Below are positions 925 through 11,593 of a stretch of 11,593 nucleotides of DNA, one piece after another. The translations under genes were made by a program, and so were the position numbers. A model generated the notes under the pieces. That model was not told where the DNA came from. It made no database searches and saw only the letters and a list, made by a program, of their open reading frames with translations. Each line of letters starts with the position of its first letter. The stretch's first letter is position 1. The stretch lies in the UHGV virus genome UHGV-1887975. One strand, given 5' to 3'. Origin of the DNA: a virus.

Positions 925-1112
925 ACAGGTTAGTACCTATGCAATTTAACGGTATTTTTCCAAGTATCTATGCAATCCTACACAGATTCTATACAGTATC
1001 GACATAGTTTCCTTTTGGTATAACTTATTGAAATATATAAAGAATCTGTGAAGCCCCTTTTCAGGGTAAACTGTATCGTGTTAGTCGTCCCTCTCTCGAC
1101 TCCTAGAAAAGT

Positions 1113-1142
1113 GCTATATACAGGGCTATATAATGCTATATA
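1113..1142. repeat. Three tandem GCTATATA units (1113-1120, 1125-1132, 1135-1142), including a perfect TATAAT at 1129-1134
   Basis: Read directly, with a period of 10-12 bp. This could be a promoter cluster or an easily melted AT-rich element. Confidence 0.5.
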
Positions 1143-2591
1143 GATAGTTGGTCACATGGTGTAACTATCAAACTACTTAACAGTTTCCTACGTGAAAGTT
1201 AGAAAGTGATAGTTATAGTTACCTTGTCAAATCTTCGTAGTCCATTCTTAAAAAATCACTTACAGACACCTTAATATCTATACAGATTTCATGTAGAACA
1301 CGATTAGTGCGTAGAAGAGTCATTATGTTAAAAACGAACTGTATACGTATCAGTACTGATTTATAAGGGTTTTGTGTATTTGAAGATAAGAGGCTATACA
1401 GCACCTTGAGAGCATGTCTTCTAAGTCATTGATACATAAGGTCACAGAAGTTTGTGTCTGTTACAGAGAAAACTGGATAGGACTTCACAGAACTACAAAA
1501 TGTTACAGCTATTGATAGGTGAAATCTTCTTGATAGATGCCTTGAAGTGTGGTGAAGGTTTCTTGAGGTGGAGCTAAACAGATGCTATGAAGAAAGTCAA
1601 TAGTTGGTTATAGATATTTTAACTGCTTTTGCAAAGGGGGTGCTGTATCGTGAATCTGGGGTACTTAACAGCCATCAATCATGAGGTAGATTCTACCGAA
1701 TCAACTGTGTAGATATTTTTTAAGATTATCGGTGAAGGGGGAATGCAGAGGGGGGTACTACGATTTTTATAAAAATTTTCAGAAGCCAAATAACTACTGT
1801 GTATATTTTGCACAATCCTGCCAAACCTCATAGAAAGCTCTGTAGCGAGTTTTAACCCCATTTTTAGGGGTAACCTGTAGGGATGTACCACCCACCTTAA
1901 AATAAAGGGGTAAAATCGCTTAGAATGCGTTACAGAGCGTCTGAGAAGCTATATTCACAGATTTTACTAAAGTCTCAGACTTCTAAGTAGTCTTTTTAAC
2001 GGGAGGGTTCTTTCTCATGTATCACCCTCTCTTCCCGCTAAGTAAGCTACACAGACCTAGAGAACATGCCTTCACAGCATCTATATCAGGTCAGATTTAG
2101 AGGGTTTTGATAGAATTTTCAAAGGTACTTGACAGATAACTATGAAGTTGTTAGGAAGAATTGTTTAACGGGAGGAAAGATACGATATAACCCGAAGGGA
2201 AAGTATCATCTTAACAGTGATTGTAAGAGATACCTGAAAAGCTCCTCTTAACAGAACTACCAAGAAGAGAGGGAACGATAAGACCAGAGGTAGTGACCTG
2301 TTAAATAGTTCGTTTCAAAGCTCTTAAGAGTCTGTTAAGTAAGGGCTATGTGAACAATCTTACCATTTTGTCAATGCTCTTGTCTTTGACCTAAATCAAT
2401 AAAATGTATCGTTTGATATGGTTTTAAGCAAGATGGCTAAAAATCTTTTTAGAGGGGCGCTTCGCTTGTGTCACTATGTTCTTTCTCTCCCTGTCTAAGA
2501 GGGGGGTTACAGAGGTCTTTCAAGTCTCAATAGACAAACCGAGGAACGCAGGAAACCGAGGGAAGAAAAACTATTGTGATTACCCTGAACA

Positions 2592-2625
2592 AGGTCTGTA
2601 AAGGTCGTTTAAGAGGTCGGTTAAG
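2592..2625. repeat. Three tandem iteron-like units: AGGTCTGTAA, AGGTCGTTTAAG, AGGTCGGTTAAG
   Basis: Read directly. The units are contiguous with a period of 10-12 bp. Confidence 0.6.
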
Positions 2626-2749
2626 AAAGGAGCTTCCCTCTCTGGGGTTGTCGCTCTTCTCTCGCTTGGTGGATTGATTAGGGGGTATGTTATACAAGCC
2701 CAACTAAGAAGACCTCTGAAGCTTACCTGTGAAGAAGCTGAACAGCTAT

Positions 2750-2802
2750 TATATTGGGTGATTACAACTCATTGAAAAATAAGCATTTTTAGAAATCACT
2801 GT
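2750..2802. repeat. 53-bp direct repeat, copy 1
   Basis: 49 of 53 positions match 2844-2896, at an offset of 94 bp. Confidence 0.85.
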
Positions 2803-2843
2803 TAAGGTTGCAGAGTTGTCTGTGAGGAGACTTGTCTGCTCTC

Positions 2844-2896
2844 TATATTGGGTGGTTACAACTTATTGAAAAATAAGAACTTTTAGAAATCACTGT
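2844..2896. repeat. 53-bp direct repeat, copy 2
   Basis: 49 of 53 positions match 2750-2802. Confidence 0.85.
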
Positions 2897-2998
2897 CAGA
2901 GAGGTGAATACTTGATAGATACAGCTTTCCGGTTCTGTCAAGTCATTTTTTAATAGATAGCATAAAATGCTAAAGATACCCCTATACCATCACGTACA

Positions 2999-3026
2999 GG
3001 GGGTTTTGAAGGGGGTTTAACGGGGG
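2999..3026 (+). repeat. Three G5 tracts at 11-12-nt spacing: AGGGGGTTTTGA, AGGGGGTTTAAC, GGGGG
   Basis: G5 runs at 2999-3003, 3011-3015 and 3022-3026. The third run overlaps the last codons of the minus-strand small ORF. Confidence 0.6.
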
Positions 3027-3193
3027 TCTGTGTGGTCATTATCCTTAAGGTCAAGCGTCCATGTACGACCGAACAGTTTAAAGACAACAAGCACTCTGAC
3101 GAGGACGTAGCGAAGTAGCAGGCCTGCAATAAGTCCAATACCTCCACCAGCCCATACATCAGGTGACCCCAATTCTGGAGGGAGATTTACCAT
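3017..3193 (-). CDS. Small single-pass membrane protein, 58 aa (MVNLPPELGSPDVWAGGGIGLIAGLLLRYVLVRVLVVFKLFGRTWTLDLKDNDHTDPR)
   Basis: The ATG at 3193 is preceded by AAGGA with a 6-nt spacer on the minus strand. The protein has a clear hydrophobic helix, and the segment is locally GC-richer than its surroundings. The track's longer version (to 3235) begins at a TTG with no SD. Confidence 0.4.
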   Translation of the reverse strand: MVNLPPELGSPDVWAGGGIGLIAGLLLRYVLVRVLVVFKLFGRTWTLDLKDNDHTDPR

Positions 3194-3410
3194 TAAATTT
3201 CCTTGTAAGACGCTCTCAATCGCATTCTGACACAAAAAAGTACCTGACCTTATAGTTGACCTGAAGAGGCCATTTAACTCGTTACAGAGCGATTGAAGAG
3301 GTCTGTGTGCAATGCAATAACCATGTGACCACTCTCATAGCCACGCCTCATATTTTACTCTCCCCATAGAACCATTATACCACAGATGTTAATGAAATGT
3401 TAAAAAGTGC

Positions 3411-3439
3411 TTGACATTAGTCTTTGAAAATGCTAGTAT
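3411..3439 (+). promoter_or_regulatory. Strong sigma70 promoter for the rightward operon: TTGACA (3411-3416), 17-nt spacer, extended -10 TGcTAGTAT (3431-3439)
   Basis: Hexamers and spacing are read directly. It is followed by two TTAACA boxes (3450-3455, 3461-3466) one helical turn apart, in an operator position. Confidence 0.65.
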
Positions 3440-3487
3440 TGTATATAAGTTAACAGAGGATTAACAATTATAAGGACTAGCTTATGA

Positions 3488-4042
3488 ATGAACGACAGAG
3501 AATTTAGAGCGATGCTTCAGGCATCAAGAGAACGCAACAAGCACAACTCCTACGCTTACACAAACAACCCCACCAGCTACGAACTACCAGCCTTTTCCAA
3601 ATCCGAACGTAAAAGCATTGAAGCGGTCATTCGTAGCATTACGCCACGAGGCAGATATATGCCAACACGCAAAACAACAAAGAATAACTTAAAAACTTTC
3701 TTGATGAGTTTTGACAGCTACGAACAATTACCGTCACGAATTGAAGATGTAATTATCGGCACTTGTCGCAGCTTTGGAAGGGATAACTATCACCGGAAAG
3801 TTTTCTATTTGCTTCGAAGCCTTGATGAGATTAACTCAAGCACAGTGACGAGCCATCTTCAAAGACAAGCAACCAGACTTAGCCACGAGCTACCATCTGA
3901 TAAGTATTGCGCTAATTTAACCACCATTTGCAATAAAGTTATCGAGACAATCAATCATCATGTTGGGGTTGGTAATATCAGCCTTACGACCAGTGAGCCA
4001 GACTTTGAATTTGACGTATACGCACAAGCAGAGGAATTTTAA
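3488..4042 (+). CDS. Hypothetical protein, 184 aa
   Basis: It is the first ORF downstream of the 3411 promoter. Its stop lies 1 nt before the next start. The SD is weak or distant. Confidence 0.7.
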   Translation: MNDREFRAMLQASRERNKHNSYAYTNNPTSYELPAFSKSERKSIEAVIRSITPRGRYMPTRKTTKNNLKTFLMSFDSYEQLPSRIEDVIIGTCRSFGRDNYHRKVFYLLRSLDEINSSTVTSHLQRQATRLSHELPSDKYCANLTTICNKVIETINHHVGVGNISLTTSEPDFEFDVYAQAEEF

Positions 4043-4711: not shown

Positions 4712-4849
4712 GTCTGTGAGAATGAGTGAGACTCAAAGATGAGCTACCCTATTACTAAGGTGTCTCACTCCCTCTGTAACCCGCATGGTTACTGGCCTCA
4801 GAATGGCTATTTTGGCAGATTTAAGATGTGTTTTTATAGGATTTTAAAA

Positions 4850-5173
4850 ATGAATAATTTCCCACTACAGATTTTTATTGATACCGACACCGCCATGATG
4901 ATTCAGGCTTTCACTGATGTAGGTGTTAGCATTGACTTTGATAAGTTGTTAGAGTTAATGGCTGATNATNCNGANANCATCTNTGACTTTATTCACTCGG
5001 TGGAGTTTAACGAGCCTCGAATGATGTTACCAATTACAGACAGTAATATGAAAAGATTGGTTATTGAGCAAACGAACAAATACAGTATTTCCCCAGAGCA
5101 ATTTTTGAAAGGTGCTGTGACAATCCTGTACAGCGATAATATTTTGGTTACGGATTCCGTGAGGGTTCACTAA
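4850..5173 (+). CDS. Hypothetical protein, 107 aa, containing 6 ambiguous bases
   Basis: The ORF is in the frame of the track's 4739..5173 entry. The ATG at 4850 (MNNFPLQ...) is preferred because 4739-4849 holds two hairpins and encodes an atypical Cys/Trp/His-rich peptide. The start remains uncertain. Confidence 0.6.
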   Translation: MNNFPLQIFIDTDTAMMIQAFTDVGVSIDFDKLLELMADXXXXIXDFIHSVEFNEPRMMLPITDSNMKRLVIEQTNKYSISPEQFLKGAVTILYSDNILVTDSVRVH

Positions 5174-5496: not shown

Positions 5497-5667
5497 AAGA
5501 GTTTTTAAAGAAATTTCTTCACCAGCCCTTTATAGCGTTTTAGTTATCTAGGGCTTTTTCAGCTTTTAAAAAGCATACTTGGCAAACGCTTTTAAGTCTC
5601 TTCTAAGTTCGTAGGCTGTCAGGTGTGCTTTTTAAAAACTGAATATTACTTAGAAGAGGAAAAAACA

Positions 5668-6378
5668 ATGACAAACGATTTATATATTAACGGCAGAAAG
5701 ATTGATAGCTTCGGGGACTGGTCACCACAGGGTGAACATCCGCTACATACTATTCAGCGTAAAGAACACGATGAAAGAATTAAGCTTGAGCAAGAGTTAA
5801 AGATGTCACCAAAGGTAATTTCCTTTGTGTCTCCTGAGCCTCAAGAAATGCCTGATGTATGCAAAACTGAAGCACTATTTAATCTTGAGCGTGAATATTA
5901 CCCACTGCTAAAAGCACAGCGTATTAAACTAGATGACGCTTACAGCAAAGTTACCCTGATGCAATCAGCTATTGAGCCATCAGAATTTGAGATTCAGGAT
6001 GAATTGTCACAGAAACCATTTGTCTATTACAAATATGAAGACAATGATGGTTTTGGTACTTTTCCTGAGAATATCCCAGACGTGATTAATAATCTTCCTG
6101 ATGGATATCGAATTGTGAAGATGGTTAAAGCTTCAAGAGGTGCTGGTCAGTTTATTTTCATGACCGATAGGAGCGATGAAGAACTCTGTGAAATTGCTAA
6201 ACAGAACATCTTAGCATCACGTAACAAGCAACTTGAAAATGTTAAGTTGTATCTCTCAAGAGAGCTTCAGGCTATGAAAGAGCTTGTTAGTGAATATGAA
6301 TCACAGAAGAAGATTGCTATGCAGGCTGATATTGAGCAGTTAGTGAAGATTTCTCAGAAATATGCAAAGGCACTTTAA
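5668..6378 (+). CDS. Hypothetical protein, 236 aa, with a coiled-coil-like C-terminus
   Basis: The ATG at 5668 is preceded by AGAGGA with a 7-nt spacer. The track's 5623 start is a GTG inside the GTGTGCT motif. Confidence 0.75.
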   Translation: MTNDLYINGRKIDSFGDWSPQGEHPLHTIQRKEHDERIKLEQELKMSPKVISFVSPEPQEMPDVCKTEALFNLEREYYPLLKAQRIKLDDAYSKVTLMQSAIEPSEFEIQDELSQKPFVYYKYEDNDGFGTFPENIPDVINNLPDGYRIVKMVKASRGAGQFIFMTDRSDEELCEIAKQNILASRNKQLENVKLYLSRELQAMKELVSEYESQKKIAMQADIEQLVKISQKYAKAL

Positions 6379-6402
6379 CTATGAATTAAAAGGAGGTGGT
6401 GA

Positions 6403-6606
6403 ATGATTGATTTAACAGAACGCTATGAGCTTATTAAAGCAATTAGTGAACGATTGAAAGAACAACCCAACAAACCAAAACGAATCAAATCATCCACCTC
6501 TAAGCAAAAGAATAGAATCAGAAGAATCGCTAAATGGTGTCTTGATAAATTACCAAGTGATTGTCAGATTGTCGGTGAAGATGGTAATTATTATCTGGTT
6601 AGGTAA
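6403..6606 (+). CDS. Small basic hypothetical protein, 67 aa
   Basis: Strong SD (AAAGGAGGTGGTGA then ATG). Lys/Arg-rich centre. Followed by a terminator. Confidence 0.7.
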   Translation: MIDLTERYELIKAISERLKEQPNKPKRIKSSTSKQKNRIRRIAKWCLDKLPSDCQIVGEDGNYYLVR

Positions 6607-6631
6607 AAAGATTGGTTGGGTAAAAATCAAC

Positions 6632-6672
6632 GGGAGAGATTATCGAGTGACATCGGTAGCTCTCCCTTTTTT
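6632..6672 (+). terminator. Rho-independent terminator: GGGAGAG / CTCTCCC stem followed by TTTTTT
   Basis: Stem arms at 6632-6638 and 6660-6666, and the T-run at 6667-6672, are read directly. Confidence 0.7.
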
Positions 6673-6700
6673 GTATATGAGATAGTCTTCTATCGAATCC

Positions 6701-6802
6701 TGTGTGCTACGTGATGATTCGGATAAGAATTATCCTCATGAAATCTGTAAAACTAATACCCACACTGAAAAATAGAATTTACGTACAACACGCTTAAAGA
6801 GG
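6701..6802 (+). promoter_or_regulatory. Conserved GTGTGCT-box intergenic element, copy A, upstream of the tape-measure gene
   Basis: It shares GTGTGCTACGTGA (6702-6714) and the block TACCCACACTGAAAAATAGAATTTACGTACAACACGCTTAAAGAGG (6757-6802) with copy B. The two ends can pair (6701-6714 with 6779-6792, with 2 internal mismatches). Confidence 0.55.
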
Positions 6803-6812
6803 TGAAACATGA

Positions 6813-8936
6813 ATGAGCAAATTCACAGTTGATAGTTTTATCGTTGAGCTAGGCTTCAATGAAAACGTTATTAAGGGACTGCAAAGAGTTGAAAAGGCAG
6901 CTTTGCAGTCAGCACAAAGAATTGAAAAGAACCTAAATAAAGGTTTCAGGATTAATACAAAGCAGCTTGATAGTAATTTAACGGCTTCTTTAGGGCAGCT
7001 TGAAAGGAAGTTTAATAAGGCCTTTGACAAGATTGAACAGAGAGCAAGAAATACTAAAGCTTTCCAGTTTACCACCAGATTTAATGACACTGTTAATCCT
7101 CCAAAACAACCAAGACAGCCACGAATTAGCGGAAACAGAGCAATCACAGCAGCTTACTCAGCGAATATGAGCAAGCTAAAAGGCCTTAACCCAATTGTCG
7201 AGAAATACATTAAGAGTCAGTTTTACGGGCTATCTGCTAAAGCCGGGTCAATGGATTCTTCAAAATTCAATGAGAAGTTAGCTCAGTTAAACGCTTCAGT
7301 CAGAGAAGCAATTGCTAAAGCCAGAGGTCATACATCCACCAGCATTAATGGTGACAGAGCAGCTAATAGTCTTGATAACCTGTCTTCAGCAGCAGTTAAA
7401 ACAGCAGGTGCATTTATCTCAATGCAGGCTGTATTAGCCAGTTATCAGAAGATTATGGAAATTGGTTTACAGCGTGCAAGTGCTGAACGTTCAATTGATT
7501 TCGTATTTGATAAAGATGCAGGTCAGGTAAAAGAGTTCACAAAGTCATTAGCTCAAACAACGGGTTTAGATATCGCTGAACTGCAATCACAGTTTGCTGG
7601 TTTTGGTGCTTCAGCTAAAGAGTCTATGGGTATTCAAGGTTCTGAAGAACTTTTTAAAAATATGATTGGCTATGCTCGTCTGATGGGGAGAAGTGAAGAA
7701 GAGATTAAGCGAGCACTGACAGCATTATCACAGATGGCTGGTAAGGGTCAGATTATGGCTGAAGAGCTTAAGGGGCAACTGGCTGAAGCTGTTCCTGGTA
7801 TGGTTCAGGTATTCGCTAAAGCAACCGGAAAGACTGAACAGGAATTATTTGATGCCATGAAGAAGGGGGCTTTAAAATCTGCCGATACTCTTCAGAAGGT
7901 CACTCAGGAACTGAATAAACAAATCACCGCTAAAGGTGGCTGGAAAGCCATTTCAGAAAGTACTCAGGCACAACTAGGGAACTTGAAAAACTCTTGGAAT
8001 ACCACGCTTGATAGTATCTTCAGAGGTTCTGAAAATGGTCTGCAAGATTTTACACGAAGCCTAACAACGCTTTTAAACGCTCTTGGTGGAAGTGGTAAAA
8101 GTCTTGGTGAATCTCTTGGTAGTCTCATGACTTCTATGTCACATGGTGTCGATAGTCTGACCGATATTAGTTACAAGGTGCGAGCGTTCTTTGATGAGGT
8201 GACATTAGCTTACCGTTCACTAAATGACACTCAGAGGAAAATTGTTGATGGTTTATCTGATGGGTTAATTGATGGTTTGAAGATGCTTGCTGTGGCTGTT
8301 ACTGCTCAAAAGGCTGCAAATGTAGCTGGAGGCTTGTTAAACCTTGCAAATGCTGTTACTTCATTCGGTGATGCTGTTAATAAAGCTAAAGCTGGCAAGG
8401 CTGGTTCTTCAGGTGGTGCGCTAAGTAAAGTCGGTAGAGTTGTCCTTTATGCTGAGTTGGTAAACTTTGCTCTTGATAATTTAAACCCTGAAGCAGCTAA
8501 GAATCCGAACTTACACCAATCAGGTATTGGTACAGAAACAAACTTCAATCCTGAATACAAAGGCGATTCTAAACCAAACCAAATTAATGAGGGGTGGGCT
8601 AAGATTGGTAGTTCTATCGCTGACTGGTTTAATGGTGCAGCTAATAAAATTGCTAACTTACAAGAACCGATGAATAACTTCGTAAATAACACACAATCAA
8701 CTCCACCAGCTATCGACACGGTGAATATCAATGCTCAATTAGCTATGGCTGTATCAGAGTTAGGAAGAAAGGTTGATGCTTTAACAGTAGAAGCTCGGAA
8801 GCCTTTATCAGTTAATATCAAAGGTGAAGCAATTGTTAGGCCGGATGAGCCATCTTTCTTTAATTTCAATCAATCAGCTAATGACCAGTTCACGCAGGAT
8901 ATGCTCTTAAGTTCAAGCTATCCAGAGGAAGAATGA
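6813..8936 (+). CDS. Tail tape measure-like protein, 707 aa
   Basis: The central segment ALSQMAGKGQIMAEELKGQLAEAVPGMVQVFAKATGKTEQELFDAMKKGALKSAD matches the conserved tape-measure core motif known from lambda H/TP901-type TMPs. The protein is long, helical and Ala/Gly/Ser-rich. GAGGTG SD with an 8-nt spacer. Confidence 0.85.
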   Translation: MSKFTVDSFIVELGFNENVIKGLQRVEKAALQSAQRIEKNLNKGFRINTKQLDSNLTASLGQLERKFNKAFDKIEQRARNTKAFQFTTRFNDTVNPPKQPRQPRISGNRAITAAYSANMSKLKGLNPIVEKYIKSQFYGLSAKAGSMDSSKFNEKLAQLNASVREAIAKARGHTSTSINGDRAANSLDNLSSAAVKTAGAFISMQAVLASYQKIMEIGLQRASAERSIDFVFDKDAGQVKEFTKSLAQTTGLDIAELQSQFAGFGASAKESMGIQGSEELFKNMIGYARLMGRSEEEIKRALTALSQMAGKGQIMAEELKGQLAEAVPGMVQVFAKATGKTEQELFDAMKKGALKSADTLQKVTQELNKQITAKGGWKAISESTQAQLGNLKNSWNTTLDSIFRGSENGLQDFTRSLTTLLNALGGSGKSLGESLGSLMTSMSHGVDSLTDISYKVRAFFDEVTLAYRSLNDTQRKIVDGLSDGLIDGLKMLAVAVTAQKAANVAGGLLNLANAVTSFGDAVNKAKAGKAGSSGGALSKVGRVVLYAELVNFALDNLNPEAAKNPNLHQSGIGTETNFNPEYKGDSKPNQINEGWAKIGSSIADWFNGAANKIANLQEPMNNFVNNTQSTPPAIDTVNINAQLAMAVSELGRKVDALTVEARKPLSVNIKGEAIVRPDEPSFFNFNQSANDQFTQDMLLSSSYPEEE

Positions 8937-8950
8937 TTTCTTATATATAT

Positions 8951-9026
8951 CCGTGTGCTACGTGAAATCTTCTGAACGGATATACCCACTAAAAATTATT
9001 TTTTACGTAGCTCACGCTTAACAGAG
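8951..9026 (+). promoter_or_regulatory. Conserved GTGTGCT-box intergenic element, copy B, upstream of the 9102 gene
   Basis: GTGTGCTACGTGA at 8953-8965 and TACCCACTAAAAATTATTTTTTACGTAGCTCACGCTTAACAGAG at 8983-9026. The ends form a 16-bp stem with one mismatch (8952-8967 with 9001-9016). Confidence 0.55.
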
Positions 9027-9101
9027 AAAATACTTATATATCAAAGGTTTGGTTAAAAATGATTAAAATACACTAAGCCTTTGAAATCAAAGGAGAATTT
9101 A

Positions 9102-9872
9102 ATGATTTACACTAATCAGCTTCGTTACAGTGGCAAAGATGGTGTTTACTTCCATCTACAAGGCCAACCAGATAATTTCTTGTCACTATCAGCAACTGAG
9201 AACATGGAATATGACAGCCCTATGATGGTGACCACTCAAAATATGCAATCAGGGCAGACTGTAACAGATAATGTAATGCGTTCACCAAGAACTATTTCAA
9301 TCAGTGGTGTGGTTGTGGTTGGTGAATCCGGTAGTATCCTTATCTCAAGAGATAATAAGCTGGTGGAAAACTTCATAGACACTCTTGAAAACTGGCGTGA
9401 CCAGAAGCAAATTATCTCAGTTGTCTGTAAAGATGGTATTAAGATTGACGACTCAATTATTACAAGCTTTAAAGCCTCTAAAGATGTTGGTATTTCAAAC
9501 GGCCTAAGAATCCAGCTAACTTTTCAGGAAATCAACTTTAAAGCTATCGTAGGGCAAACTGATATTTCGACTGCTACTGGCAAGACCGCTACCACGAATG
9601 ATGGTGGTGCTACTTCTAAGAAGAATACAGGGAATACTACGACAAGTCTTGGAAGCCCTATGCTGACCTGTAAAGAGCTTTTTAGCTATTCGGCAAGTAA
9701 GTTATCAGATGAAGCGCTAAAAGCCCGTGTAACGTGCTCTAAGAGCGTTAGCGTTAAAAATGGTGAGAGCACCTTCACAGCCTCAGCTAATGAGCAAGCT
9801 TCAAAGGTGCTTAAGTCGGGTAATGCTTTACGGAAGTACTCTGTGAATCCGAATAAGAAGGGCACTTATTGA
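9102..9872 (+). CDS. Hypothetical tail-associated protein, 256 aa, named by position downstream of the TMP; the C-terminal half is Thr/Ser/Gly-rich
   Basis: The ATG at 9102 is preceded by AAGGAG with a 6-nt spacer. The track's 9081 start is a TTG. The function is inferred only from synteny with the TMP. Confidence 0.7.
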
Positions 9873-9881
9873 GACATAAAA

Positions 9882-9899
9882 AGGGGCTTCATAGCCCCT
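9882..9899 (-). terminator. Hairpin AGGGGCT / AGCCCCT between convergent genes, followed by a T-run on the minus strand; terminator for the integrase gene
   Basis: 7-bp perfect stem and 4-nt loop. The minus strand reads AGGGGCTATGAAGCCCCTTTTTAT. Confidence 0.65.
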
Positions 9900-9904
9900 G
9901 AAAA

Positions 9905-11425
9905 TTACAGTTGATAAGCGTCAATATCCAGTAGCTCTTTATCAGCAATTTCAAAGATTGGTGACCCATCATTTAGCGGTAACGGGTTTGTAGGTATGGT
10001 TATTTCAGTGTCGTTCTGTAGCGTTACAGTTACCGAATCCTTACCCAATGTCAGCCCCTTTAGATGCTTGGACAAAATCAACTGACACTCGACACGACCC
10101 GCTTTAGTTGTCAGGTCAATATCTTTAAGCTGGGGTAGTTCCTTATCAGTGAGTGAAGCCTTACGCCTCATGTTATCAATCGTGGTCTGTAGCTCTGTGC
10201 GCTTCTGGTTCAGTTCCTTAAGCTGAATTTTTAGTTCATCAATATCATCCATCTCAAGAAGTAGGGCGGTAGCTTTCTTGATTCTGGTTGTGACAATTTC
10301 AACCTCATGCTGTAGAGATGCAATCTTCCCCTCTGCTTCTCCATCATTCCCCACGTCAATCATCCCCAGAAAATTATCAATCATCCACTTATCAAACGGT
10401 TTACGCTTCAACGGAGGAACATCACAGCGACCATCAAGATGGTTATTGCACCGATAAACGCCCTGATACTTATTCTTAGTCCCTGTAGGGTGAACACTAG
10501 CCCCGCACTGACACCTAAACAGACCTTTGAAGATGTTAATCGTTAATGGATTATCACTTGCAGGTGTACGGCCTATACGGTTCTTACCAAGAATCTCTTG
10601 AGCTTTATTGAACGTTGAAGCATCTATAGCGGCTTCGTAGTAGTTCGGTATAGCGGGGCGGTCATTACGTTGTGATGCTGGTAACGTGCCTATCGTTGTC
10701 TCTGACCTTAAGATGGTGCGTACAGAGTGAACACTAAACCCGTTAGCATCTTTACGGCGACTAAACGACTTTATACCGTTGCTTTGAAGGTGACGGGCGA
10801 TGTTATGCAGACTTTCACCACTTAGCAGCAGCTTGAAAATCAGTCTTACAGTCTCAGCGTGTTCATTGAGTTTAAAAGTATCGGGGTCAATCCATCCGGG
10901 AACCATCTTTGTTAAACGTTGTTCACCAGCAAGGGCAAGTTTTGCACGTTGCTCCCATTTCTGAGAAACACGGAAAGACTTCTGCTTAGATTCCTGATGC
11001 GCTATGTAGGCTTTGACACGCTGGATGATTGAGATTCCTAAATCATCGGCTAAAGCATCCTTTGTGTAGATAAGACCATCTTGTAGCGTGTGAATCTCTA
11101 ACCCGTTGCCTAAGATGCGATTCATCAAGGCTTCTGTTTCAAGGTGTTCTAAGCGGCCTATACGGTCGATACTCTCAACAAGCAAAATCGTACCTTCTGG
11201 AAACTCCCCAGACTCAATACGGGCTAACATGTCACCAAACTGACCAGTAAGATGCTTACCTTTGTAACCGGATAGGCCTTCATCACTGAAAGACGCTACT
11301 ACTTGAGCATCGCTATTCTTCTTCAGCCACTGCTTGAACAGGTCGTTTTGTCGTCTGGTTGAATCTGCACCTTCAGCGCCTTGTATAGCTGAACTGTACC
11401 GAAGGTATGTAATTACGCTCCTCAT
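9905..11425 (-). CDS. Large serine recombinase (integrase), 506 aa
   Basis: N-terminal catalytic motif YLRYSSAIQ with downstream VESIDRIGR. Cys-rich zinc-ribbon segment CQCGASVHPTGTKNKYQGVYRCNNHLDGRC. C-terminal coiled coil. The gene lies adjacent to attR. Confidence 0.9.
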   Translation of the reverse strand: MRSVITYLRYSSAIQGAEGADSTRRQNDLFKQWLKKNSDAQVVASFSDEGLSGYKGKHLTGQFGDMLARIESGEFPEGTILLVESIDRIGRLEHLETEALMNRILGNGLEIHTLQDGLIYTKDALADDLGISIIQRVKAYIAHQESKQKSFRVSQKWEQRAKLALAGEQRLTKMVPGWIDPDTFKLNEHAETVRLIFKLLLSGESLHNIARHLQSNGIKSFSRRKDANGFSVHSVRTILRSETTIGTLPASQRNDRPAIPNYYEAAIDASTFNKAQEILGKNRIGRTPASDNPLTINIFKGLFRCQCGASVHPTGTKNKYQGVYRCNNHLDGRCDVPPLKRKPFDKWMIDNFLGMIDVGNDGEAEGKIASLQHEVEIVTTRIKKATALLLEMDDIDELKIQLKELNQKRTELQTTIDNMRRKASLTDKELPQLKDIDLTTKAGRVECQLILSKHLKGLTLGKDSVTVTLQNDTEITIPTNPLPLNDGSPIFEIADKELLDIDAYQL

Positions 11426-11513: not shown

Positions 11514-11526
11514 CAATGACCCTTGA
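11514..11526. repeat. attR core, CAATGACCCTTGA
   Basis: It is identical to 129-141 and contains the functional tonB ATG (11516-11518). Confidence 0.75.
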
Positions 11527-11593
11527 TTTACCTCGCCGCTTCCCCTGGCCGACGTTACTTTCGGTCTGCATTCATGGTGCTGTTGTGGCGGGG
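11516..11593 (+). CDS. tonB: TonB energy-transducer, 5' partial (first 26 codons; continues beyond the window)
   Basis: The translation MTLDLPRRFPWPTLLSVCIHGAVVAG matches the E. coli TonB N-terminus as I remember it. The reading frame is open to the window edge. Confidence 0.85.
   Translation, partial: MTLDLPRRFPWPTLLSVCIHGAVVAG

Follow-up and report, generated by a model that had tools for sequence, protein, structure and literature searches.

The DNA analysed here, UHGV virus genome UHGV-1887975 (11,593 nucleotides, hereafter the window), corresponds to an 11.3-kb Escherichia coli island that lies between yciI and tonB and shares 99.8% identity with strain UTAK-18. Two genes of the island, and no others, are of phage origin; they encode a tape-measure protein (TMP) and a Dit-like tail/baseplate protein, and each is preceded by an intergenic copy of a palindromic element, which is the subject of this report. 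An earlier reading made from the sequence alone had recognised this element as a conserved GTGTGCT box in front of the structural genes. The Dit-like gene is 80–84% identical at the DNA level and 63% identical at the protein level to its counterpart in Felixounavirus, which directly follows the phage TMP gene. The island TMP is 30% identical overall to that of Felixounavirus, with about 80% identity over the first 45 residues as judged by eye from the alignment, and the BLAST alignment to a Felixounavirus extends from around position 6775 into the TMP gene. The corresponding phage genes overlap and have neither a spacer nor a promoter between them. The island carries the chimeric TMP and the Dit-like protein without capsid or other tail genes, and it resembles either a satellite of virulent phages of the Felix O1 type or a defence against them. 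A different E. coli satellite family, also with TMP and baseplate genes, was described by Barth et al. (PMC10055350). Relatives of the two intergenic regions were found in 400 and 467 of 5,426 complete E. coli genomes (~8%), and the related islands occupy at least three insertion sites.

The 55-bp unit in the island and beyond

Comparison with 25 related islands defined the element as a unit of 55 bp. Its 5' arm is GCTACGTGAAATCT(G) and its 3' arm (Y)AGAWTTYACGTAGC; the centre between them is asymmetric and contains a TACCCAC box and an A/T tract. The two shared blocks from which the element had been recognised are present as read, the first at 6701–6714 and 8952–8965 and the second at 6757–6802 and 8983–9026, with gaps of 42 and 17 nt between them. 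The inverted-repeat ends GCTACGT and ACGTAGC are likewise present, both here and in an alignment of 47 family members. The gaps differ because the copy upstream of the TMP gene, copy A, carries a 27-nt insertion (6715–6741, TGA duplication included) that is missing in most relatives; copy A is in the uninterrupted 55-bp form in islands L006, L008, L010, L012 and L014–L016. The string GTGTGCTACGTGA occurs exactly twice in the window, and with up to three mismatches it has nine matches against 1.9 expected, a number that was reached in none of 200 shuffles.

A sequence profile made from the 47 family members was used to score the window, the islands, the phage and the plasmids. Copy B, upstream of the Dit-like gene, scored 53.9 bits (E = 1.7e-15) in gene orientation versus 20.5 bits when reversed, and the 3' two-thirds of copy A (6739–6794) scored 36.7 bits (E = 3.8e-10). 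A degenerate relic elsewhere in the window scored 12.5 bits (E = 0.014), and the same was found in L006, L009, L010 and L012. The proposed third site, a GTGTGCT just upstream of the gene at 5668, did not hold up: it gave no profile match even at E ≤ 10, and it is not conserved, with about half of the related islands (type-2) having GGTGCTCT in its place. That intergenic region contains an inverted repeat at 5601–5658 (TCTTCTAAGT ... ACTTAGAAGA), the 3' arm of which adjoins the Shine-Dalgarno sequence of the 5668 gene. Since this repeat is conserved in both sequence types of the region, it suggests a translational or leader hairpin. The coordinates of all features are given in Table 1.

Table 1. 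Positions of the units, their parts and the neighbouring features in the window
Feature	Position	Strand	Remarks
Degenerate relic	1249-1303	+	3' arm CAGATTTCATGTAG; no gene 3' of the relic
Small operon	starts 3488	+	
236-aa gene and 67-aa gene (aa, amino acids)		+	
'Third GTGTGCT'	5623-5650	+	Not a copy
Intrinsic terminator	6632-6672	+	Hairpin 6632-6666 and T-run; closes the upstream operon, directly 5' of copy A
Copy A, interrupted	6706-6787	+	Start of 5' arm, GCTACGTGA, 6706-6714; remainder of unit 6742-6787
Parts of copy A		+	TACCCAC box 6757-6763; TAGAAT 6773-6778; degenerate 3' arm TTTACGTACA
Conserved leader CACGCTTAAAGAGGTGAAAC	6788-6812	+	Holds TMP Shine-Dalgarno; start codon 6813
TMP gene (707 aa)	6813-8936	+	Copies A and B on either side
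Copy B, canonical 55 bp	8957-9011	+	5' arm GCTACGTGAAATCT; 3' arm TTTTACGTAGC
Parts of copy B		+	TACCCAC box 8984-8990; A/T tract; TATTTT 8997-9002
Conserved 3' flank of copy B, TCACGCTTAACAGAG	9012-9026	+	Includes the 8-mer CTTAACAG
Dit-like tail/baseplate gene	9102-9872	+	3' of copy B
Large serine recombinase gene	9905-11425	-	

Intact related islands have two strong copies, one 5' of the TMP gene and one 5' of the Dit-like gene, and the proposed conservation of the element in front of both is thus borne out. Island copies are always oriented with the gene (50–60 bits forward versus 13–20 bits reverse). On its 5' side copy B adjoins at least three unrelated sequences, and its 3' flank is followed by either of two leaders; the unit itself is conserved. 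Sequence has been exchanged between the two copies: L008, L015 and L086 have hybrids, and in L030, L049, L050 and L072 the whole of copy A is B-like. Insertion sequences (IS) of the IS3 family lie within copy B in L003 and L014, and the TMP gene is interrupted by IS2, IS3 or IS21 elements in many islands (L006, L007, L008). Such insertions, together with the interruption of copy A in the window and its loss from two islands, could be taken to indicate a decaying relic with no present function in the island. We consider this very improbable, as copy B was found in every related island examined though both of its flanks have been replaced, and the length and orientation of the unit are constant across very different replicons.

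Smaller repeats surround the two copies. The 27-nt insertion is bounded by TGA...TCA and, with 6690–6700, makes an inverted repeat (TATCGAATCC / GATTCGGATA) around the 5' arm of copy A; a similar local repeat is present at copy B, with ATATCCGT at 8946–8953 and ACGGATAT at 8976–8983. A 13-bp hairpin (9041–9085, CAAAGGTTTGGTT ... ACTAAGCCTTTG; z −2.7) separates copy B from the Shine-Dalgarno sequence that serves the Dit-like gene, and it is missing from short-leader islands of the L013 type.

Members outside the islands were collected from IMG/VR and metagenomes with the seed pattern GCTACGTGA-N20-50-ACGTAGC. Most matches were due to chance, and among them stood a coherent set of exactly 55 bp with the extended arms GCTACGTRAAWTCTG / CAGAWTTYACGTAGC, often flanked by GGCRKC. 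The length is 55 bp in 56 of the 69 distinct pattern matches and in nearly all members supported by the profile. The family consensus consists of the arms GCTACGTGAAWTCTG / CAGAWTTYACGTAGC, a C-rich box and an A/T tract; non-island members have CCCCTGC for the C-rich box where the islands have TACCCAC, and their T-tract is also present. One locus, L032, has an island-like centre (ATACCCGCGAAAAAT) and 3' flank (GCACGCTTA).

The element was confined to mobile elements, with one to three copies each, and one non-island member was found at 13 chromosomal versus 301 plasmid places in the 5,426 E. coli genomes. By the profile, a 33.8-kb E. coli plasmid whose backbone genes are of the IncX type (taxB/taxC, hns, hha, topB) has one full copy and one 3'-only copy, and pOXA-48 has a 3'-only copy; each of the three is found in the maintenance region, immediately ahead of a tyrosine-recombinase gene or a neighbour of one. 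The 3'-only copies, which precede the recombinase gene itself, consist of the C-rich box, the A/T tract and the 3' arm, so this part of the unit can stand alone. RefSeq starts the plasmid recombinase reading frames inside the element, and a coding role of the 3' arm was rejected because its variable positions fall at second codon positions. In 12 of the 29 non-island loci the unit lies 17–40 nt before a homologous tyrosine recombinase of ~345 amino acids, and locus L224 has three copies in the same orientation, each of which precedes a gene or gene pair of its own. Two metagenomic loci have two 55-bp units ~1.14 kb apart, L144 (1531–1595 and 2667–2733) and L191 (4074–4139 and 5226–5293); in L144 there is no open reading frame (ORF) of at least 70 codons between the two units, and a P4-size integrase follows 200 nt away. 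Beyond pairs of closely related loci, no flanking sequence, RNA or gene was common to the different contexts, and no shared trans-acting protein was found by tblastn of all island proteins against the 29 non-island loci and the whole of plasmid L261. A resemblance of the unit to the R6K iteron (TACGTGAAA) and to P1 ParB box A (ATTTCAC) was also considered; the origin of plasmid L261 gave no profile match.

Pairing and conservation of the arms

The unit could act as RNA, being transcribed as part of read-through or leader transcripts in which the arms pair as a hairpin. Such a hairpin would serve as an RNase III-like processing site, stabilise the transcript, signal antitermination or gate translation of the gene behind it. 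The predicted fold of copy B has about 15 pairs with one mismatch (−19.4 kcal/mol, z −3.5), close to the stem of 16 bp with one mismatch originally described. The weaker fold ascribed to copy A was also seen (z −1.9 in the window), and the uninterrupted copy A of L006 folds better than shuffles (z −3.3), as does copy B. The fixed orientation of the element relative to genes would suit an RNA, and so would the IncX-type plasmid, in which the element occupies almost the entire gap between two co-directional genes. At some integrase loci a −10-like box was seen by eye just 5' of the element, which would place the element at the 5' end of the mRNA.

Other observations weigh against an RNA role. 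Across the 47 members, 80.1% of the cells in the 18 arm-arm pairs were paired versus 79.5% in partner shuffles, 105 of 500 of which were as high; the covariation score was 0.103 versus 0.099, with 168 of 500 shuffles as high. The statement that covariation gives the RNA model no support thus stood in a test for compensatory changes. The arms vary independently: A.C and A.A mismatches are common, pair 16/56 has 13 mismatches that are mostly A.C and just one A-U, pair 19/53 is unpaired in 20 of the 47 members, and variants of L028, L013 and L004 change AAA to TTT in one arm only. Arm sequence is nearly invariant across replicons with completely different centres and is conserved far beyond what structure would need. 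Moreover, copy A in the window is interrupted and folds weakly, and the 3'-only plasmid copies are unable to form the hairpin. No Rfam family matched the element, put, nut, ribozymes and int-alpA included: the only matches were a chance mir-75 elsewhere in the window at E ≤ 1 and a tRNA in 15 family loci at gathering thresholds. The lack of covariation argues against a selected hairpin and for arms that are two sequence-specific half-sites on duplex DNA, or else a stem bound by a sequence-reading protein. We therefore regard an RNA role as unlikely, and the put-like or processing RNA suggested before is weakened.

Candidate functions of the unit

Several features of the centre resemble a promoter. 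The hexamer at unit positions 41–46 is CAGAAT, CAGATT, TAGAAT or TATTTT, i.e. a −10-like YA(G/T)WWT that retains the two most important −10 positions. At positions outside the search pattern, A is found at position 42 in 45 of the 47 members and T at position 14 in 41, and the C-rich box has C in 31–34. The element ends 17–90 nt upstream of start codons with good Shine-Dalgarno sequences, and every island copy, like most members from elsewhere, is oriented with the gene that follows it. The strong terminator reported 5' of copy A was confirmed (−21.1 kcal/mol, z −4.0; none of 200 shuffles folded equally well) and is kept in related islands. Since it lies directly before copy A, the TMP gene needs a restart or a bypass of transcription.

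On these grounds we favour, tentatively and with somewhat less than even confidence, a portable promoter/operator cassette of double-stranded DNA that restarts transcription after the strong terminator and is read by a putative factor. Its half-sites, GCTACGTGAAWTCTG and the complement, would be inverted and about four helical turns apart, and would flank an asymmetric core with the C-rich box, the A/T tract and the −10-like hexamer but no −35. Each copy would start or gate transcription of the gene behind it, and both tail genes would remain off until a DNA-binding factor acted on the arms. Transcription would start near the 3' arm, ~7 nt past the hexamer, which would give the TMP mRNA a ~27-nt leader carrying the Shine-Dalgarno sequence. 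An activator-dependent promoter, one of the four roles suggested from the sequence alone, is the best fit among them on account of the orientation, the position after a terminator, the −10-like hexamer and the missing −35; the helper-phage factor that had been tied to it fared less well (see below).

Several points weigh against such a cassette. No sigma-70 site with −35 and −10 boxes 16–18 nt apart and at least 9 of 12 matches was present at either copy, in line with the earlier remark that no −35 is recognisable. At several integrase loci the −10-like box seen by eye is 9–25 nt upstream of the element, so the element there would be transcribed or be an operator, and it may serve as an operator or a transcribed leader rather than a promoter. 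Members in L043, L121 and L144 point away from the nearest gene. Copy A is missing before TMP in the L009 and L004 islands, so it is dispensable for the persistence of an island. Finally, the census is biased by its seed pattern, in that conservation at unit positions 1–10 and 46–55 is partly by construction; conservation at positions 11–45 and the fixed length of 55 bp are not.

Other promoter and antitermination signals were considered for the centre and set aside. A sigma-32 reading (CGTGAAA as −35, CCCCTGC as −10) has mismatches at the key −35 T and −10 A/T positions, as judged against the consensus rather than by a computed score. The TGCTT of a T4 MotA box is ~11 nt from the hexamer and not ~21, and the lambda/rrn boxA sequence TGCTCTTT is found in some non-island members, not in the island copies. 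The element is not itself an intrinsic terminator, having a loop of ~34 nt and no T-run after the 3' arm; the true terminator is the 6632–6672 hairpin.

That a protein binds the half-sites as a pair of operators has indirect support in the sequence specificity of the arms, their fixed spacing and the lack of covariation. Such a putative protein could come from the host, the island or an infecting phage. We lean towards the host because the island and the other carriers share no protein by BLAST. It is conceivable, if doubtful, that one host-encoded factor common to Enterobacterales reads the 55-bp cassette and puts unrelated mobile elements under one shared signal; its targets would then include the recombinase and partition region of IncX-type plasmids and pOXA-48, genomic-island integrases and, in the island studied here, the Felixounavirus-related tail genes.

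The phage source was framed as a late-promoter mimic, in which the element copies a Felixounavirus promoter and the phage programme activates the tail genes. The two genes behind the copies being the only phage-derived genes of the island would be consistent with this, as would the lack of a −35, which is shared by many phage late promoters. Yet the best profile match in a complete 86-kb Felixounavirus genome was 8.8 bits (E = 0.2) and covered one arm only, the box motifs were not found in Felixounavirus intergenic regions, and no credible match was found in 50,697 deposited phage records at the sensitivity of BLAST. Furthermore, TMP and Dit overlap in the phage with no promoter between the two, and the element is also found on conjugative plasmids and integrative elements unrelated to that phage. 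For Felixounavirus the mimic appears largely refuted, and we judge it very unlikely; the helper-phage factor suggested earlier is not supported in the sense of a copied helper promoter. A separate short site of possible phage relation was noted 5' of the 236-amino-acid gene in type-2 islands (L006 6168–6190, L010 6346–6368), where TTAAGTYATCTTCTAAGTGT matches a Felixounavirus intergenic region at 19 of 20 positions; the phage site, near 77,986 of OQ845957.1 on the minus strand, separates divergent operons. At 5589–5610 of the window a more distant version, GCTTTTAAGTCTCTTCTAAGT, is present. A site of the TTAAGTYATCTTCTAAGTGT type, rather than the GTGTGCT box, may be a helper-related signal.

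Alternatively, the unit may be a recombinase site or a miniature mobile cassette bounded by terminal inverted repeats (TIR), a 'mobile promoter', whose position in front of genes reflects module exchange and not regulation. The homologous tyrosine recombinases beside the element in 12 of the 29 non-island loci and beside the plasmid copies are compatible with this. So are the placing of direct copies exactly on either side of the TMP gene, the divergence of sequences at the edges of the element, the A/B hybrids, the absence of copy A from L009 and L004, and the fact that different contexts share nothing except the element. On the other hand, the central region of 21–25 bp is too long for strand exchange by a tyrosine recombinase. 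In long chromosomal contigs, complete palindromes are found uninterrupted next to int genes, so the element is not the att crossover; pOXA-48 has the 3' part only; and the A/B hybrids are equally explained by homologous gene conversion. The only recombinase encoded in the window is the serine recombinase. The direct repeat AATGACCCTTGA lies at the ends of the island (129–141 and 11514–11527), is likely the crossover core of the serine recombinase att sites, and is unrelated to the element, which was rejected as an att site of this enzyme on that basis. In comparison with miniature inverted-repeat transposable elements, the unit has TIR-like arms and shows presence/absence polymorphism of copy A; no target-site duplications at its edges and no transposase with matching ends were found. 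The small TIR-bounded insertion proposed earlier may account for the portability and polymorphism of the element. Overall, a recombination or mobility role is unlikely.

Compared with known systems, the promoter/operator cassette may be set beside the activator-dependent late promoters of P2 and P4 (Ogr/Delta) and P1 (Lpa), which, like the element, have no −35 and have a dyad near a −10-like hexamer. They are repeated before structural-gene units and silent until the factor appears, as is proposed here. The P2/P4 signature, TGT-N12-ACA at about −55, is not in this sequence, whereas the half-sites of the element lie ~40 bp from each other, on either side of the hexamer. Pfam, PHROGs and NCBIfam revealed no Ogr-, Delta- or Lpa-like protein among those of the island, and a P2/P4-type late promoter was rejected for want of the dyad and of an Ogr/Delta zinc-finger activator. 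The PeSL units of T4-type phages and the 'putative mobile promoters' of bacteria are also small and intergenic, with a promoter-like core and inverted repeats, and stand before unrelated genes and at module junctions; they differ from the element in sequence and hosts, and the promoter activity of the element is putative. HK022 put and lambda nut share with the island copies a position just past a terminator and ahead of late genes, but the island copies have no Rfam match, no covariation and no boxA/boxB arrangement.

Integron attC sites are imperfect palindromes of ~55–60 bp that, like the element, lie between gene-sized units and sometimes beside a tyrosine recombinase. In attC, structure is conserved over sequence and the ends are RYYYAAC / GTTRRRY, while the element has conserved arm sequence and no covariation; the attC cores are absent from the 47-member alignment, which has GCTACGT / ACGTAGC at the ends, and this identity was rejected. 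REP/BIME repeats, sequence-conserved intergenic palindromes in operons that are bound by host protein, resemble the element as palindromes in gaps. They number hundreds per chromosome and are ~35 nt long, in contrast to the few copies of the element, which are confined to mobile DNA.

Other features of the island and implications of the unit

The 236-amino-acid protein of the island, which had been labelled a 'transposase', gave no match in Pfam, PHROG, NCBIfam or PADLOC and no meaningful match in PDB, and the homologues listed for it are all more than 87% identical. A terminator at 9877–9899 (GGGGCTTCATAGCCCC) follows the Dit-like gene and is very similar to several Felixounavirus terminators, for example in 18 of 19 positions at 51,890. 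Ambiguous bases (N) at 4967–4984, inside the ORF 4739–5173, mark a sequencing or assembly blemish.

The 2.5 kb from 930 to 3480 contain almost no credible ORFs; in other islands this slot holds accessory genes for an AP2/ERF-domain protein, an adenine methylase and a small serine recombinase. Motifs like GTTACAGAG recur in this region, and a 53-nt direct repeat (2750–2802 and 2844–2896) is 92% identical. The 8-mer CTTAACAG occurs seven times in the window against 0.56 expected, six times at 1176–2806 and a seventh time in the 3' flank of copy B. Back-to-back sigma-70-like promoters lie at 3374–3467, where TTGACA-17-TAGTAT (with TG) is directed towards the operon at 3488 and TTAACA-18-TATAAT (11 of 12 matches) leftward into the ORF-poor region. 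Because of this leftward promoter, the ORF-poor region, which has a small hydrophobic ORF at 2950–3235 on the minus strand, may be transcribed on that strand.

Searches of the literature by sequence string and keyword found no description of the element or of the island family. We propose that it is a cis-acting palindromic control element or mobile-promoter cassette. If the cassette is a switch, it would control when the island makes its chimeric TMP and its Dit-like protein of Felix O1-type phage origin, and it would govern the step at which the island would hijack or poison phage tail assembly. IncX-type and pOXA-48 plasmids spread mcr-1 and OXA-48. A reader protein shared with these plasmids, if true, would be one point at which mobile DNA of several kinds is controlled, and the 55-bp unit provides a concrete bait with which such a protein may be found.

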